The notes below the pieces were generated by a model. That model was not told where the DNA came from, did no database searches, and saw only the letters and a list, made by a program, of their open reading frames with translations. A stretch of 64,000 bases of DNA from Patellaria atrata CBS 101060 (taxonomy: Eukaryota), in the NCBI GenBank assembly GCA_010093705.1, contig MU006090.1:1-64000 (forward strand), written 5' to 3'. This document shows positions 1 through 37,533 of the stretch, piece after piece (position 1 is the stretch's first letter; each line of letters starts with the position of its first letter). The translations under genes and the position numbers were made by a program.

Positions 1-26
1 GATTTCTACTATTGGGGGGGGGGTAA

Positions 27-298
27 TGTGACGACGTGTCACGATGCTGATCCCGTATTTCCTATGCTGAGTGTTTGGTTTATTTGCAAGAGATCTTTGC
101 CGGGTCGGACGCAGAAAAGATCTCTAAGCGCTGATTGGTTAAACGGAAGATAGTCGGGCCGAGGCTTGGCAAGGCGGGACTATTATATGCGGACATTCGG
201 CCCACGATATTATTGTTCCTTAACTTAATCTCCACACTTAGTAGTTAGTAATAGAGATAGTCAAAATACGATTACTACAGCTATACTACATTGTCACA
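27..298 (+). mobile_element. LTR of an LTR retrotransposon (family A, copy A1), probably a 3' LTR
   Basis: Starts TGTGAC (27) and ends GTCACA (298), a 6-bp terminal inverted repeat. Preceded by a G10 polypurine tract (14-23) plus TAA. Two more copies in the window. Confidence 0.8.
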
Positions 299-310
299 AA
301 TTTAATCTAG

Positions 311-582
311 TATAATAATGTAGTATAGCTATAGTAATCGTATTTTAACTATCTCTATTACTAATTACTAAGTATAGAGATTAAATTAAGGAATAATAAT
401 ATCGTGGGCCGAATATCTATATATAATAGTCCCGTCTTACTAAGCCTCGGCCCGATTATCTTCCGTTTAACTAATTAGCGCTTAAAGATCTTTTCCGCGT
501 CCGACCCGGTAAAGATCTTTTATAAATAAACTAAACACTTAGTATAGGAAATACGGGATTAGTATCGTGACACGTCGTTATA
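311..582 (-). mobile_element. Heavily RIP-mutated inverted solo LTR (family A, copy A2)
   Basis: Full-length reverse complement of 27-298 with many CA>TA and TG>TA changes (tgtgacaatg > tataataatg; gtcgtcaca > gtcgttata). Only 12 bp from A1. Confidence 0.85.
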
Positions 583-1089
583 ATAATTTACTAACTTCTT
601 AACTTCGGATAATACTTATAATAAGATAAGATATACTATATAGAAATAATATAATAAGTGAAGTTAAGTTTAAAACTATAATATCTAAATCTATAGATAA
701 GATTAATAGTAAGAATAACTATAAAGAATCTAAATATATAAGGGAAAGATTATTCTTAAATATTTATTATAACGGGAGTCTATACTTATCAAGATAGAAC
801 TAGATAAGTCTAGAAACGCGCCTAGCTTCTCACTTAACGTGGTCAACTATAAAGGTAGGTTTGGTAAAGTGATAGGATACGTATAATAAAGGCACTTCAA
901 GTTGTCGATACAACTTGCTAACTCCTTAACTTCGGGTACTGCTTATAATGAGACAAGACGTACTATATAGAAACAGTGTAACAAGTGAAGTCAAGTTTAA
1001 AACCGTAACATCCAAATCTATAGGTAAGATTGATAGTAAGAATAACTACGAAGAATCTAAATATATAAGGGAAAGACTATCCTTAAATA
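583..1089. repeat. Two tandem copies of LTR-like family B (truncated, strongly RIPed 583-762; longer copy ~766-1089)
   Basis: 583-762 aligns with ~910-1089 and differs mainly by C>T/G>A transitions. Ends tattataac...cttaaata fit RIPed TGTT...AACA termini. Confidence 0.6.
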
Positions 1090-1653
1090 TTCCTATCCTC
1101 TATAGTTAACTTGGTTACCTATACTCTAGTCGTTCCGGTCGTTGGTCGTTCTACGCGACTAGCACGACCAGCGACCACTATCTAGTCGTTTTAGTCGTTG
1201 GTCGTTCTACGCGACCAGCACGACTAGCGACCAACGTCTGGGTCACGTGATTCCTTATCACTCGTTTCATCCGCAGTTCTCCCGAGTGGTGTTCCTTTCT
1301 TCCCCTCACTCGTCGTCTACACGTTCCTATAACTTGTGGCCGTAACAATATTCTTATCCTCTATAGTTAATCTAGTTACCTATACTCTAGTTATTCTAGT
1401 TATTTAGTCGTTCGGTCGTTTCTCTCACGATTAAAACGTCTATACGTTTAAACGTCTAGGTCACGTGGTATCTCTTAGTCGTTCTAGTCGTTCGGTCGTT
1501 TAGTCGTTTCTCTCACGACCGAAACGTCCATACGTCTAAACGTCCAAGTCACGTGATTCGTTGTTACTCGTTTCCCCCGTAGTTCTCCCGAGTGGTCTTC
1601 CTCTCTTCCCCTCACTCGTTATCTACATGTTCCTATAACTTATGGCCGTAACA
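1088..1653. mobile_element. Two tandem solo-LTR-like copies (family C; 1088-1347 and 1349-1653)
   Basis: Both start tattc(c/t)tatcctctatagttaa (RIPed TGTT) and end cctataactt(g/a)tggccgtaaca. Both carry internal gtcgtt-rich sub-repeats. Confidence 0.7.
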
Positions 1654-2161
1654 CCTGACACTGGCCAGACCACCTAATCTTCTGTCATCGCAAATCCTTT
1701 AATGCCGGCCGTAAACTAGACCATCTCTCTCCTGCTTCTTGCGGTCAAGTGCGCATGCCTTGCTGCTAGATGTGTACTACACTGCGTCAGTAAACAGCCA
1801 ATCCGACACTCTCTACAGATTATAATGCCGTATCTTGATGCATAGTCGAAAAGCTGGTTGAACTAATCCATAATAATGATAACTCTAACTGATTTTCTTG
1901 CTAACTGCTCCGTAGAGGTATAATCGCTGGGAGAGAATACTTCTAGGGAGGCTTACTCTCCCCCTAGACTAGGAGATGGAGGTCCTTGGCAGTGCGCACG
2001 GATGGAAATTTGCCTTATCCAAAGAATTCCAACCTAATATATTAACATGATAGTCTAGCATCAAAAAACTAGCTAATAAACGAATCTAACTTTATTAGAA
2101 TATTCATCTAGGTCAATTGCACCCTTCTATCGGTTTGCATCGCAATATATCTGAAGATTTT

Positions 2162-2257
2162 GACCTTAAAACACTTTTGAAAGTAAGAAAGTGTTTTAAG
2201 CCCCCGGTTTTCAGAATCTTGGCGCCAAAAAAAAGTGTTTTAGACCTTAAAACACTT
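2162..2257. repeat. Cluster of short inverted/direct TAAAACACTT motifs, possible DNA-transposon end remnant
   Basis: CTTAAAACACTTT 2165-2177 / AAAGTGTTTTAAG 2188-2200 form a perfect 13-bp inverted repeat. Second inverted pair at 2233-2242 / 2248-2257. Confidence 0.45.
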
Positions 2258-2266
2258 AAGTATTGT

Positions 2267-2490
2267 AGTTAAGAACAATAATATCGTGGGCCGAATATCC
2301 GCACATAATAGTCCCGCCTTGCCAAGCCTCAGCCCGACTATCTTCCGTTTAACCAATCAGCGCTCAGAGATCTTTTCCGCGTTCGACCCGGCAAAGATCT
2401 CTTGCAAATAAACTAAACACTCAGCATAGGAAATACGGGATCAGCATCGTGACACGTCGTCACATTACCCCCCCCCCAATAGTAGAAATC
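2267..2490 (-). mobile_element. Truncated family A LTR (copy A3, 2267-2464) plus polypurine tract and flank
   Basis: Near-identical reverse complement of window 1-225, including the C10 tract (2468-2477) and agtagaaatc. Confidence 0.8.
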
Positions 2491-2785
2491 GGCCCCGATT
2501 TCCGTGGTGACGTTAGTAGCGTTCTATAACGCGATTAGTTCAAAACAGTGGTGAAAACAATGGTATGGAACGGTAGCTTGAGACAGAGCGTCAAACCGTA
2601 TTAAAACAGATCTCTGACGAGAGCACGGATCTGTGGTGTTTTATCTGTTCTCTTTCTGACCCAGTATCATTGTCAACTGTTCAGTATATAGTCCATATCT
2701 CTCTCAGTAGTTGCAAATCAAGCGATATATTCAGTGCACCTGCAGATCCAGTTTCCCTAACAGTATAGCATAAATTAAAGTATCT

Positions 2786-5700
2786 TTAAACCGTAATATC
2801 TACGTTTTCTGGTTGCCATTGATCCAGAATCGCAACCGATGATATTACGTATGGATGTTGAGGGCCGAGAATCTGTTTCTGTAGCTGAGAGCATTGTCTC
2901 ATTAATAAAATAGCATCGTCCTTACGGCCTTGAAGCTTAAACGTAAATGCGAGGTTGTTCATACTTGTCAGCGTGTCTGGATGCTCCTCCCCAAGCACCC
3001 TCTTTCTCGTCTCTATCACTTGCACCTCCAGCTCTTCGGCCTCCTTCCATCGCCCTTGATCCCAAAACGTCGACGCCAGGTTAGCCATGCTGGTCAGCGT
3101 GTCTGGATGCTCCTTCCCAAGCACCCTCTTGAACGTCTCCATCACTTGCACCTCCAGCTCTTCGGCCTCCTTCCATCGCCCTTGATTCCTGTACGTCGAT
3201 GCCAGGTTGGCNNNNNNNNNNNNNNNNNNNNNNNNNNNNNNNNNNNNNNNNNNNNNNNNNNNNNNNNNNNNNNNNNNNNNNNNNNNNNNNNNNNNNNNNN
3301 NNNNNNNNNNNNNNNNNNNNNNNNNNNNNNNNNNNNNNNNNNNNNNNNNNNNNNNNNNNNNNNNNNNNNNNNNNNNNNNNNNNNNNNNNNNNNNNNNNNN
3401 NNNNNNNNNNNNNNNNNNNNNNNNNNNNNNNNNNNNNNNNNNNNNNNNNNNNNNNNNNNNNNNNNNNNNNNNNNNNNNNNNNNNNNNNNNNNNNNNNNNN
3501 NNNNNNNNNNNNNNNNNNNNNNNNNNNNNNNNNNNNNNNNNNNNNNNNNNNNNNNNNNNNNNNNNNNNNNNNNNNNNNNNNNNNNNNNNNNNNNNNNNNN
3601 NNNNNNNNNNNNNNNNNNNNNNNNNNNNNNNNNNNNNNNNNNNNNNNNNNNNNNNNNNNNNNNNNNNNNNNNNNNNNNNNNNNNNNNNNNNNNNNNNNNN
3701 NNNNNNNNNNNNNNNNNNNNNNNNNNNNNNNNNNNNNNNNNNNNNNNNNNNNNNNNNNNNNNNNNNNNNNNNNNNNNNNNNNNNNNNNNNNNNNNNNNNN
3801 NNNNNNNNNNNNNNNNNNNNNNNNNNNNNNNNNNNNNNNNNNNNNNNNNNNNNNNNNNNNNNNNNNNNNNNNNNNNNNNNNNNNNNNNNNNNNNNNNNNN
3901 NNNNNNNNNNNNNNNNNNNNNNNNNNNNNNNNNNNNNNNNNNNNNNNNNNNNNNNNNNNNNNNNNNNNNNNNNNNNNNNNNNNNNNNNNNNNNNNNNNNN
4001 NNNNNNNNNNNNNNNNNNNNNNNNNNNNNNNNNNNNNNNNNNNNNNNNNNNNNNNCTTCGGCCTCCTTCCATCGCCCTTGATTCCTGTACGTCGACGCCA
4101 GGTTGGTCATGCTGGTCAGCGTGTCTAGATGCTCCTCCCCAAGCACCCTCTTTCTCGTCTCTATCACTTGCATAAACAGCTCTTCGGCCTCCTTCCATCG
4201 CCCTTGACTCCTGTACGTCGACGCCAGGTTGGCCATGCTGGTCAGCGTGGAAGGATGCTCCTCACCAAGCACCCTCTGACTCATCTCCATTGCTTGCACA
4301 AATAACTCTTCAGACTCGTTATACCGTCCATCACTATATAGCGTTATAGCATACTTCCATGCCAAGGTTGATCTATTCCCGATCTCTTGTTCAACGAGAC
4401 TATGTGATAAAGCGTATTTAGCATGCGGAAGTAATCGTCTCCACTTGCTTCTATTACCATGATCATGATCTGGGAACACCCTAAGCAGCCGTGTAATAGC
4501 ATTTCGGGTCCATTGGTCCAGCAACTCCTGCTTTCGAAGCCACTCCCGTAGAGCGCGATGTACTAGTTGGTGAAGATCAAGTGCGGATTCGGCAGGCCGC
4601 CTTACAATAAGCGCGTAGCTACTGAGAACTTTTATCGCATCTTCCCTTTCACGGAGCGACGATGCTTCCAGAAAATCCAGCGGGATGTCTTTTCGGTCTA
4701 CGCAGGCGGCAAGGAATAGATAGTCTGCTGCTAGCGTATCACTACGGTGGATCTGGTCCATGGAGACAAGTAGTGTGATAGCTATAAGACTTTTTATACC
4801 GTACTCCTGTAGCTTATCCTTAGACAATGCGCTGTCACGCTCGAGAGCTTCTTTCTTTCGCCTGACTAGTTGTGATCGGTACATCTGTAGCGTGACATTT
4901 CTGGTATTAATATAGGCTGCTGCTTGGACAATTGCTAAGGGAAGATATAATAGGTCTTGTAGTAAAAGCTTCGCCTCCTGCTGCTCACTTCTTAAAACCG
5001 GAGTATTTAAATAGTTTTCCAACGTCCTTTGGGCCATATCCGGTGCCATTTCCCCTAGCTTTACAATATTTTGCGATGCTAAACTCTTGGCTGTGTCACT
5101 GTTAGTTGTTGTGAAGATGATAGAACATAGTTCCGACTGTGGTAGGTAGTCGATCAAGTTGGCAGCTCGTGCCGTGGAGAACCCGCTGGACTCTAGAGTT
5201 ATATCCTCCGTGTTATCAAAAATTAGCAAACACTGCCTTGCATCCTTTCTACTTAGATGAAATTTTACCAACTGCATAATGTCTACCTTCTCATCGTCCC
5301 AACCAGGAATGTCGAGCTTTTGGGCAATACTTGTATACGATTGATAGAGACTATCCATGTCGCTTGCATCAACCCAGAAAACGGAGTAGTTCTTATTCTT
5401 TTGTCTTATTTTATACGCAAGCTCGAGCGCTAGCTGTGATTTGCCTACTCCTCCGGGTCCTACTATCGCTAAGGTTGTAGTTTGCTTGTCTCCTAGGAGC
5501 TTTGCTTCCAGTTCCGCGAGCTGTGACTCTCGACCCACGAAATGATCGTTTCGGGAAAACGGAATGATAGTTGGTGCGCCACCAGCTGCTTCCACTTCCA
5601 TCTGGAGTCTTCTTAATGCATTCTCCTTTCCTTCGCCATAGGAGGTACGCATAGAGACATCGAGAATTCCAAGAAGGCAGTATATATTATCTTCTTCTTC

Positions 5701-34041: not shown

Positions 34042-35731
34042 TTAGGTCTTATCGCCGTACCCCATCTGTGCCAGCAGTCTGATCGCTGATGCTTGAGAGT
34101 AGCCAATGAAGACCGGACCGTTGAATACCATCTGGGGCGCTGTTGACTTCACTGCTTTGCCAGTTAAAGAGTCCTGCGGTGACTGTTCAGCTGGGTAGAG
34201 ATTAGAAATGAAGGCAGGTTGGGGCGTTGGCTGGCCCGGTGAATCAACACGCCGTAATCCTGGCGTTTCGACATGTTGAGTTGTGGAGGGTGTTGCAGCT
34301 CTCATCTTAGTATGATCAAAGGGACACTTCTGTGCAGCATCCGCCGCTTTTTCATCAAGGTCATTAGTGGGCTCGGGGAACCTTGTACCGGTGCTTTCTA
34401 GAATGTGATATTTAGCAGGAACGGATATTCCCCACGGGCGGCTAGGGGACTCTCCCACGCGAACCTCTTTCAGGGGCCGGTCAAAACGGGGTTGTCGATC
34501 TTCTTCCACACGGGGACTTTGCTCATCGTACTCATTTTGGCCGTTTTTAAGACTCGTACTGACATCATGCGCCCAGTCTCGAACCTTCTCGTTGGACTTG
34601 TCGTCTTCAACCGCCACCTCGTCTTCCAGTTTATCTGGCAGAAGAGACTGATGTTTCTCTCCGAGTCCTTGGATCATGCTGACCAGATTGCCATACTTTG
34701 CGTCCAGCTTACGTATGCTTTCTGCATTCATCTGATGGCTTTTTACACACACCTCGTGACTACGTGGAATCTCATGCTTGTGTTTCTCAAAGTACTGTGC
34801 CACCTCTTCCGGAGAGTGTTGGTCCAAGAATCGGATAGGACATACGGCAGCAGATCCATCTACAGAGGTGGCGGGAGATGCTGAGTCTAACCCGCAGATC
34901 TCAGCACGTATAGGATCATGGAAAGAAGCTCGTTTAGACCTTAACGTGCTTGATCCTCGTCGAGAATGAGAGCTTCGTGGGGTAGTGACACTCTGCCGAG
35001 TATATGTCGAGCCAGTCCGAGTATGAGGTCGGCTTTTATTGAGCTTATTGAAGGGGCATCTCAACCTACTGGGTGTTCCTGCTGTGGTAAAATCCTGCTC
35101 TAGGCCAGGAGATGCGAGGCCGTTATCGGTAGAATTTCCACCCCATATTGTTACGTCTACACCACTGTTCGGCTGTTCTTGACATTTACGCCCTAGAACT
35201 CCGATTTCAGCCTGACGTACTTTATACGCTCGCGTTCGAGTGTCCGGATCGTGGCTTTTTGTTAAATGTTCGAGCCAGTCGAGATTTCCATTCTGCTGCG
35301 ATGAGCCTGCTTGCTCTAACTCGTCTAGAAAAATTGGAAAATCTTGAGACGATGTCGCTGGAGATGCACTTTTCAGAAGCGTGAGGTACTGGATGGATAA
35401 TATGTTAGTTGGGACCATAGAACTTGTGATTCGACTGAAAGAGATAATTTGTTGGGAAAAAGGTCAGAGTCAATTTGATAATTCTATCATCGCTGCTGAG
35501 CAGCTACAGATCTAGAGCTAAAGTGTTTCATCATACAGGTAAATATAGAGGCAAAGATAAGATCTTCCATTTAATAATGAATCGCCTTACCTGCTGCTTA
35601 GCCCACGCGAGTTTGTTTTCCAGGTTGCGATTCTCTTGCCAAAGTAACTTGTACTCTTGTGAAAGCGCTTCAAACCCCTCTTGAAGCTGTTGCAGGATGT
35701 TATCCGATGCCTGAGCGCCAGCAGTCGCCAT
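34042..35731 (-). CDS. Conserved fungal hypothetical protein (N-terminal coiled coil; CPIRFLDQHSPEEVA motif); exons 35731-35591 and 35388-34042; snoRNA host gene
   Basis: A 202-nt GTAAGG...CTAAC...CAG intron joins LENKLAWAKQQ to YLTLLKS in frame. Confidence 0.75.
35460..35539 (-). ncRNA. Intronic box C/D snoRNA; 18S guide similar to U45/U44-region guides, second guide complementary to U6
   Basis: Box C ATGATGA 35534-35528, box D CTGA 35467-35464, C'-like GCGATGA after a gctg/cagc stem. 11-nt perfect antisense TTAGCTCTAGA to conserved 18S UCUAGAGCUAA. Box D lies ~75 nt from the 3' splice site. Confidence 0.8.
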
Positions 35732-36285
35732 ATGTAAAGATTGCGAATCTTCTTTTGTCGGGTGGCTGCGCCTGTCGTACGGTGACAAAGATGGTGGAAA
35801 AAGACTACATTTGTGGCAATAATAGTTTGTGGCTTAGAAGATGGACACAATACTGGTAATTGTATCACATTTGCGGTGATTCTCGAAAAAGATGATCGAT
35901 TTCGGGAGACGCGCGGAAGACAAAGATTGAAGAAGTCTATGAGGTATCTTGGAGTAGAATACCTTACTAAGCTTATCTCTAGGTCTAATCTAATATTACA
36001 GTACTGTAAGGTACTGTAAGGTAATAAGGTAATGGCCGCCTGCACTTTCCTTACCAATTTATTATATAACACAAACAACTTCCAACTTAGTTTATATCCT
36101 TCCATGAGTCTGGCCATACACTCTGATCACCGTCTTTTGCTGTAAATGCACATCAATCGAGAAGAGCTGGCCTCTATATATCCATTGACCTCCCAAGTTC
36201 CAGCATAGAGTCCCACTCGTTCCAGGAACCACCGTATTGTTTATAAAACGCCCATAAATATACCATAACATAGCTTTGCGGCCCA

Positions 36286-37533
36286 ATGTCTTCGCTCCAC
36301 CTCTCGAGATTCAGGAAATGGATACTACAGTCACCTCCTGTAGATTGGGCAATACAACAACTGAGGGAAACCCTTGTAGGAGCTTTGCGACAAGGTCCTA
36401 TACCTCAACATGTAGCATTCGTCATGGATGGAAACAGGCGCTTTGCAAGAAGCCACCACATTGAGACAGTGGAAGGACACAATTTAGGATTCGAAGCACT
36501 AGCTAGAGTATATGACTTCCCTTCTGCTATATTACGTGTGTTTGCTGACTGAGGTGTGTTCGTTCTAGATCCTAGAAGTCTGTTATAAATCCGGCGTCAA
36601 AGTAGTCACCATATACGCTTTCAGTATCGAAAACTTCAAACGTTCAAAGTACGAAGTCGACGCGTTGATGGACATGGCAAAAGTCAAACTATCTCAAATG
36701 GCACAGCATGGGGATCTACTAGAGCAGTACGGAGCGAGCATAAGAGTTTTAGGGCAGAAGGAATTGGTAAAACCAGATGTCCTAGAAGCTATTGACAGAG
36801 CTGTATCCCTAACAGCTGGGAATAAGAAGTATGTCGGGGAAGTAGAGTCGAAAGTACACATGATCAAGGACCTAACGTAACCCCTAGGGCAATCCTGAAC
36901 GTCTGTTTCCCGTACACTTCCCGCGACGAAATCACTACATCAATCCGCAACACTGTCATAGACTTCTCTAAGCCTGATCCACCACCACTTAGGCGTCCTT
37001 TCTCGGAAAGCCACATTACCCGCAACATCCGTCAACAGAACCTCGGCACTGTAACCGAAGAATCCCCCAACTTATCCCCCGATCCGTCCCCCTCGCTCAA
37101 TCTAGTCGAACACCGTAATGCCGACGGTGCAAACTCTTCCAACACGTCCATCGCTTCCGCGATCTTCAATCACTCCGCCAGCCACACAGCAAACTCGTCC
37201 TCAACAACCCTAGAATCCGTCCAACATGGCAACAGTAACCTCCCGGATCCCGAGAAAATCAATGCGCAAACATTGACTGATCACATGTTCACGACGGGCA
37301 CGCCCCCGCTCGACCTCCTGATCCGCACGTCAGGGGTGCAGAGGTTGAGCGATTTCATGCTTTGGCAGTGCCATGAAGAAACAGAAATTGTGTTTCTGGA
37401 TTGTCTGTGGCCAGAATTTGATCTTTGGCATTTCTTGCCCGTGTTGGTGGAGTGGCAATGGGGTAGGAGGAAAGCGGAGGAGGCTGAAAGGAGCAGAGGC
37501 AGGGGTAGAGGGAAGCAAATCAAGGTCGCGTAA
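36286..37533 (+). CDS. RER2: cis-prenyltransferase (dehydrodolichyl diphosphate synthase); exons 36286-36507, 36569-36828, 36888-37533
   Basis: PQHVAFVMDGNRRFA, YAFSIENFKR, PYTSRDEI, DLLIRTSGVQRLSDFMLWQ, LWPEF. Confidence 0.93.

Follow-up and report, generated by a model that had tools for sequence, protein, structure and literature searches.

A Patellaria atrata box C/D snoRNA resembling Nc CD15 and Afu-199, with a predicted 18S rRNA guide and a candidate U6 guide

Can a single intron-encoded small nucleolar RNA (snoRNA) of a fungus direct 2′-O-methylation of both ribosomal RNA (rRNA) and a spliceosomal RNA? The question is raised by a minus-strand locus within the first 64,000 nucleotides (nt) of contig MU006090.1 from Patellaria atrata CBS 101060 (GenBank assembly GCA_010093705.1), the stretch called the window below. 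The original prediction, drawn from the letters of this DNA, described there a box C/D snoRNA with one guide for 18S rRNA and a second for U6 small nuclear RNA (snRNA). We find that the RNA is not a new kind of molecule; it is a new member of a family known from Neurospora crassa (Nc CD15) and Aspergillus fumigatus (Afu-199). The explanation that best accounts for the evidence as a whole, and in which we place good confidence, is a CD15/Afu-199 family member with a D′ guide for 18S rRNA and a lineage-specific D side. Use of the D guide on U6 is a tentative proposal, which is weighed below against its rivals.

Anatomy, intron and family of the snoRNA

The RNA is laid out as follows; D+5 denotes the nucleotide selected for methylation, which lies in the fifth pair counted upstream from a D or D′ box.

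35461..35539, minus strand: box C/D snoRNA of about 77–79 nt, from its sequence and homology to Nc CD15 and Afu-199
35528..35534, minus strand: C box AUGAUGA, which fits the RUGAUGA consensus
Between C box and D′ guide, minus strand: spacer of six bases, from the sequence
35511..35521, minus strand: D′ guide (guide 1) UUAGCUCUAGA (TTAGCTCTAGA), complement of 18S UCUAGAGCUAA
35506..35509, minus strand: degenerate D′ box CUGU, with a single U between guide and box; D+5 points to UCU[A]GAG
35492..35504, minus strand: stem of 5 base pairs (bp), GCUGC/GCAGC, with loop UCA, between D′ and C′, assigned by eye
35487..35492, minus strand: C′ box cGAUGA, five of six positions against UGAUGA, from the sequence
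35468..35486, minus strand: D-side region of 19 nt, TAGAATTATCAAATTGACT (UAGAAUUAUCAAAUUGACU), from the sequence
35477..35486, minus strand: 5′ half of the D-side region, UAGAAUUAUC, complement of 18S GGUAAUUCUA, adjoining the D′ target
35468..35478, minus strand: D guide UCAAAUUGACU, complement of U6 GGUCAAUUUGA; D+5 points to GUC[A]AUUUGA
35464..35467, minus strand: D box CUGA, canonical

A box C/D RNA is recognized by an RUGAUGA C box near its 5′ end and a CUGA D box near its 3′ end, and both are present. The sequences beside D′ and D each provide a guide of at least 10 nt, with 11 bp to 18S rRNA on the one side and 10 Watson–Crick pairs plus a G-U pair to fungal-type U6 on the other. The layout originally proposed was confirmed element by element and position by position, and its description as an intronic C/D snoRNA is borne out by the boxes, the host intron and the homologues Nc CD15 and Afu-199. 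The minimum-free-energy fold did not single out the D′–C′ stem and was no better than the folds of shuffled sequences. Folding no better than shuffled sequence is usual for C/D snoRNAs. UUGA (35473–35470) was considered as an alternative D box and was rejected because its D+5 nucleotide would be one partner of a G-U pair in the 18S duplex.

The snoRNA lies in sense orientation within the first intron of a protein-coding gene, as is expected of this family.

35389..35590, minus strand: host intron 1, 202 nt, phase 0, from splice signals and the frames of the open reading frames (ORFs)

Its signals are a 5′ GUAAGG at 35590, a branch sequence ACUAAC at 35409–35404 and a 3′ AG at 35390–35389; the frame of exon 1 ends in ...AKQQ at 35591, and that of exon 2 starts with YLTLL at 35388. 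The branch A lies 59 nt downstream of the end of the D box. We infer that the snoRNA is expressed by release from this intron after splicing, and that it would then be assembled into a box C/D small nucleolar ribonucleoprotein (snoRNP).

A sensitive search with 401 nt around the locus gave Afu_199 (RF01501) as the best Rfam match, at 30.8 bits and an E value of 9e-4. Two cloned RNAs represent this family. Nc CD15 of N. crassa is a 73-nt, northern-positive, intronic RNA (Liu et al. 2009, PMC2780460), and Afu-199 of A. fumigatus was obtained as 26 clones with an 80-nt northern band, maps in sense orientation to intron 1 of Afu7g02320 and was counted among the "orphan" C/D RNAs (Jochl et al. 2008, PMC2377427). 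The Patellaria RNA has 15 nt, UUAGCUCUAGAUCUG, in common with Nc CD15, identical throughout and spanning the D′ guide, the 1-nt spacer and the start of the D′ box. Nc CD15 places a GCUG...CAGC stem at the same position and continues, as aligned by eye, with a C′-like box, a D guide and CUGA. It too is intron-encoded, and its length is similar (73 nt versus about 79 nt here); its D′ box reads CUGC with the same 1-nt spacing, whereas that of Patellaria reads CUGU. With Afu-199 the Patellaria RNA has in common the D′ guide, the sense position in intron 1 and the size of about 80 nt, and the D′ guide, the following U and a degenerate D′ box (CUGY or CAGG) of the Afu_199 consensus can be aligned with it. 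Since the identical 15 nt and the layout are those of Nc CD15, we assign the Patellaria snoRNA to this described Pezizomycotina family; on the sequence comparison, both its homology to Nc CD15 and Afu-199 and its 18S function are very probable. A pattern of C box plus guide gave nine matches in genome contigs and three in viral contigs, none with a stem, C′ box or D box downstream; that number fits chance, and we therefore recovered no orthologue by this route.

Several observations could instead suggest a decaying or unexpressed snoRNA copy, and most of them also count against the explanation we prefer. There is no terminal stem, as the flanks ..CCUGU and CCUUU.. form no Watson–Crick pairs; the D′ box is degenerate; the 30.8 bits fall short of the RF01501 gathering score of 45; and an Rfam search of the whole window returned no match at gathering and none at E ≤ 0.05. 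Against decay, the RNA retains undamaged C, C′ and D boxes, its 11-nt guide agrees base for base with the cloned homologue's, and the intron is well formed, with the 59-nt distance from D box to branch A. Degenerate D′ boxes occur, moreover, in both of the RNAs cloned from N. crassa and A. fumigatus. We consider a decaying copy very improbable. The printed flanks of Nc CD15 likewise show no terminal stem.

The D′ guide and a further complementarity to 18S rRNA

For comparison with 18S rRNA we used the N. crassa segment from Am154 to Um167, assembled from the overlapping targets that Liu et al. drew in their supplement 4. Against this segment the D′ guide forms 11 bp, at a computed duplex energy of −16.6 kcal/mol. 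Supplement 4 of the same study draws UUAGCUCUAGA-U-[CUGC] on 18S rRNA for Am159, and four predicted N. crassa sites fall there within 14 nt: Am154 (CD17), Am159 (CD15), and Am161 and Um167 (both CD32) (PMC2780460). The D′ guide of Patellaria is thus predicted to methylate 18S UCU[A]GAG, the counterpart of N. crassa Am159. In the proposed mechanism, UUAGCUCUAGA would bind 18S UCUAGAGCUAA; five pairs upstream from CUGU, the A in UCU[A]GAG would then be the nucleotide presented to fibrillarin. The 18S guide, degenerate D′ box and site read from the Patellaria letters by the original prediction are the same as those printed for Nc CD15. Am159 itself is a predicted site, and the text of Liu et al. 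(PMC2780460) yielded no mapping of it, which tempers this part of the assignment.

The D-side region, on the sequences compared, is lineage-specific and consists of two halves. Its 5′ half, UAGAAUUAUC, forms 10 bp including one G-U with 18S GGUAAUUCUA, at −10.8 kcal/mol; a run of 10 to 18S rRNA was reached by 184 of 50,000 shuffled D-side sequences of unchanged base composition. GGUAAUUCUA lies immediately 5′ of the D′ target, and the last four pairs (UCUA) compete with the D′ duplex. Because of this 4-nt overlap, the 5′ half adds only about six further pairs. An accessory 18S pairing had been suggested from the outset: the 10 bp with their G-U hold and fit what is called extra base-pairing, while the eleventh pair would involve an 18S base beyond the sequence compared. 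In the extra base-pairing class, a second guide region that does not adjoin a D box pairs near the target, may overlap the canonical duplex and raises methylation up to five-fold (van Nues et al. 2011, PMC3116282). Most likely UAGAAUUAUC would act in this way, pairing just 5′ of the D′ target and helping a guide that has a weak D′ box.

The register of this pairing also suggests where it came from. With CUGA placed directly after UAGAAUUAUC, the D+5 nucleotide would be the A of Am154 (register by eye). As it stands, UAGAAUUAUC is 9 nt from the D box and so cannot select that A under the D+5 rule. Because the Am154 register is kept while 9 nt intervene, we suspect that UAGAAUUAUC is a displaced older guide of the Am154 type.

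A candidate U6 guide and its rivals

The 3′ half of the D-side region adjoins the D box and is complementary to U6. As a stand-in for the U6 of P. atrata we took metagenome contigs that matched a core pattern of fungal-type U6, in which the bases just 5′ of the leading TGAAAC were unspecified; this environmental sample comprises 119 listed matches at no fewer than 117 loci. The same core pattern had no match in viral contigs and none in genome contigs. With the commonest form (L054), the D guide forms 11 bp, namely 10 Watson–Crick pairs and a G-U, at −13.0 kcal/mol. Pairing starts with the guide base directly preceding the D box, which forms the G-U, and there is no mismatch around D+5. The D+5 target, GUC[A]AUUUGA, lies within a single-stranded part of U6, 13 nt upstream of ACAGAGA, and its A is position 22 if ACAGAGA occupies 35–41, as the N. 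crassa U6-Am47 duplex implies. The forms found upstream of UGAAAC among the matches listed were as follows.

GTCAATTTGA: 71 of 119 (65 after G, 6 after A)
GGTCATTTGAAAC: 12 of 119
GGTCAATTGAAAC: 4 of 119
GGTCAAATTGAAAC: 1 of 119
Intron-like junction: about 10 of 119
Other forms: the remainder of the 119

The GGUCAAUUUGA motif is thus the majority form, carried by those same 71 listed matches, and the U6 complement named by the original prediction proves real for most of the fungal-type U6 matches listed. P. atrata U6 itself probably carries the motif. A P. atrata U6 that reads GGUCAUUUGA, or any other form than GGUCAAUUUGA, before UGAAAC..ACAGAGA would count against a U6 guide.

Two features of the environmental U6 genes deserve mention in their own right. 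In three loci with tandem or close U6-like copies (L020, L089 and L096), ..GGCCAGGTTACTGGTGA takes the place of the sequence that otherwise links the 5′ stem-loop to TGAAAC, and the GUCAAUUUGA motif is therefore absent. Many fungal-type U6 genes carry introns of messenger RNA (mRNA) type (GTAAGT or GTGAGT) at various positions downstream of the AGC triad (L002, L044, L049, L034, L065, L079, L037, L053, L094, L039, L072 and others), and the roughly 10 further matches with an intron-like junction have a ..CAG directly 5′ of TGAAAC. A 2016 survey of fungal U6 by Canzler and colleagues reportedly announces repeated intron gain in its title, with which these loci agree.

The U6 match is rare in shuffled sequence. 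Among 50,000 shuffles that kept the base composition, 9 gave a Watson–Crick run of at least 10 anchored at the D box; for the duplex energy, 10 of 3,000 came out as low or lower. The shuffle figure holds for a single 110-nt RNA, and the original prediction was free to match the guide to many other RNAs; we therefore applied a look-elsewhere factor of about 60, for this larger set of possible targets, after which the probability of a chance match is about 1%.

A target in some other RNA (25S or 5.8S rRNA, another snRNA, a transfer RNA (tRNA) or an mRNA) has a precedent in that Liu et al. assigned the D guide of Nc CD15, AACUUCUAAUGU, to tRNA-Thr (PMC2780460). The Patellaria D guide matches by eye no target string in their supplement 4, however; within the 64-kb window, its 10-mer complement occurs only once, on the opposite strand of the snoRNA gene itself; and tRNA predictions of this kind are unsupported by conservation in the account of Canzler et al. 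We regard such a target as unlikely. Separately, a site with an 8-bp match in yeast 18S rRNA was considered and set aside, since its D+5 would fall on a mismatch.

Comparison across species bears on the choice between a U6 guide and a D side without a target of its own. The D guides of the three fungi all differ: UAUCAAAUUGACU in Patellaria, AACUUCUAAUGU in N. crassa and ..caUGUAUUAU before CUGA in the Afu_199 consensus. The N. crassa guide lacks both the 18S-adjacent and the U6 complementarity of the Patellaria snoRNA. The Afu_199 consensus guide, unlike Patellaria's, finds its match in 18S UAAUACAUG, where Nc CD32 is predicted to target Um167 in N. crassa. The original prediction had proposed conservation of the D guide in orthologues as a check and had named its absence as a reason to abandon the U6 assignment. 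The guide is not kept in the two published homologues; being unlike those of N. crassa and Aspergillus, it fails that check at the level of fungal classes. As an observation on the family, the core of the RF01501 consensus D guide is identical to the D′ guide of Nc CD32, so that this consensus, though Afu-199 is listed as an orphan, has two 18S guides for adjacent sites: a CD15-type D′ guide (Am159) and a Nc CD32-like D guide (Um167).

In the main rival explanation the D guide lacks a target entirely: the D side would serve 18S rRNA as extra pairing or persist as the remnant of an Am154 guide, and the U6 match would be a coincidence of AU-rich sequences. The UAGAAUUAUC–GGUAAUUCUA pairing shares its register with the D guide that Nc CD17 directs at Am154, and the D guide of the CD15 family turns over between lineages. 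Many snoRNAs use their second guide region for extra pairing alone (PMC3116282). The D-side elements of the "tRNA" guides in N. crassa, among which Table 1 of Liu et al. places that of CD15 (PMC2780460), showed no conserved pairing with rRNA or snRNA, and hence no conserved canonical target, in the study of Canzler et al. This explanation is opposed by the shuffles, in which the D-box-anchored U6 match is rarer (9 of 50,000) than the accessory 18S match (184 of 50,000), and by the canonical CUGA kept beside the D guide. We judge it close to evenly balanced, leaning slightly to the negative.

The alternative preferred by the original prediction is a double guide, for 18S UCU[A]GAG through D′ and for U6 GUC[A]AUUUGA through D, the U6 site being one that would be new in fungi. 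Besides the anchored pairing, its rarity in shuffles and the 71 matches, it is favored by the fact that U6 is a regular substrate of nucleolar snoRNPs, with human guides known (PMC5855946); by other Pezizomycotina C/D RNAs predicted for U6, namely CD_11/snR53 (18S and U6) and Nc_CD_54 (U6-55); and by a plant precedent upstream of ACAGAGA, Arabidopsis U6-Um27, a site found by RiboMeth-seq and listed with the guide SnoR167 (Wu et al. 2021, PMC8053127). Numerous points weigh on the other side. The D guide is found neither in Nc CD15 nor in the Afu_199 consensus; 48 of the 119 U6 matches listed lack the motif, 12 of them reading GGTCATTTGAAAC; the duplex is short, minimal in length for a guide and AU-rich; and some probability of a chance match survives the correction given above. 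No fungal or human U6 methylation at this place appears in the literature examined: human 2′-O-methyl sites span A47 to C77, and U6 of S. cerevisiae lacks 2′-O-methylation (PMC5855946); A41 of S. pombe is stated to be the only U6 2′-O-methylation outside the internal stem-loop. Upstream of ACAGAGA, that literature has no methylation of a fungal U6; a literature search found no RiboMeth-seq map of U6 from a filamentous fungus, and another, for the guide sequence itself, returned no paper, supplements being outside its coverage. Finally, just 10 of 16 single-sequence target predictions for N. crassa were confirmed by conservation in the account of Canzler et al.

Weighing these points, we put the chance that a minimal, canonical and lineage-specific guide of this kind is actually used at a little under one half; taken together with the probable presence of the motif in P. 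atrata U6, this makes the double guide a possible but doubtful reading, and the D guide a candidate, on its complementarity, for 2′-O-methylation of U6 at GUC[A]AUUUGA. For this double guide, we infer both methylations as products of the pairings described: UCAAAUUGACU, directly against the canonical D box, would guide the U6 modification while UUAGCUCUAGA guides that of 18S rRNA. Its origin can be pictured tentatively as a gain by a CD15-family snoRNA of a D guide for U6 position 22 in a Dothideomycete-like lineage. About 9 nt may have displaced an older 18S guide of the Am154 type, which was kept as extra 18S pairing, and the new sequence next to the D box may have captured U6.

Surroundings, significance and comparison with known systems

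The gene that hosts the snoRNA is conserved.

34042..35833, minus strand: host gene, from its ORFs, for a conserved protein of unknown function whose N terminus resembles a coiled coil

The protein encoded by its exon 2 has 2,027 homologues at E ≤ 1e-5. The best 120 of these 2,027 come mostly from Dothideomycetes, and among them those of Coniosporium apollinis and Glonium stellatum are closest, at about 52% identity to exon 2; a Pfam search of exon 2 returned no family. A divergent neighbor on the plus strand (about 36274–37533) starts about 440 bp from the host start codon and encodes a cis-prenyltransferase (Pfam PF01255, E values of 2.5e-30 and 5.9e-21 on two exons). Positions 1–4000 of the window have a guanine-plus-cytosine content of 0.33, versus 0.44–0.50 in the remainder, and may be a repeat or a region of the repeat-induced point mutation type.

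As it stands, the locus enlarges a fungal snoRNA family already described by one member and lends support to an 18S site that had been predicted, a result of chiefly annotation value. If the U6 guide is true, it would add a methylated position between the U6 5′ stem-loop and the ACAGAGA box, and it would be a clear example of guide turnover, because a single family would carry a different D guide in each of three fungal classes. A further gain would be a testable case in which a displaced rRNA guide is reused as extra pairing while an snRNA guide forms at the D box. One RNA linking ribosome and spliceosome modification, as the original prediction inferred for this locus, is already in print for fungi as Nc CD11/snR53, with targets in 18S and U6; only the U6 position and the possible origin of the guide would be new. 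In mammals, mgU6-77 guides a 28S site as well as U6. The U6 activity of mgU6-77 is described in the source cited above for human sites (PMC5855946).

Known systems resemble the two halves of the D-side region to different degrees. The 5′ half is like the extra base-pairing elements (PMC3116282) in lying beside the methylation target and overlapping the canonical duplex by a few nt, although here such an element is a predicted one. Compared by eye, it agrees in complementarity and register with the D guide of Nc CD17 for 18S Am154, which has its human counterpart in guides of the SNORD45 type (human A159). The Patellaria element differs in standing 9 nt off the D box.

For the candidate U6 guide, Nc CD11, snR53 and S. 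pombe snoZ30 (the mgU6-47 type) provide a fungal C/D snoRNA predicted for both 18S and U6, and snoZ30 is needed for U6 Am41 in S. pombe (PMC5855946). They belong to another family, however, use one D′ element for both targets and address a U6 site at or after ACAGAGA, versus 13 nt upstream of it here. SnoR167 is a plant guide unrelated to the Patellaria RNA. By our own count on a plant-like U6 (L112), assumed to be numbered as in Arabidopsis, U27 lies 9 nt before ACAGAGA and about 4 nt downstream of the equivalent of the Patellaria target. Even so, SnoR167 and U6-Um27 represent C/D-guided methylation of U6 upstream of ACAGAGA, as proposed for Patellaria.

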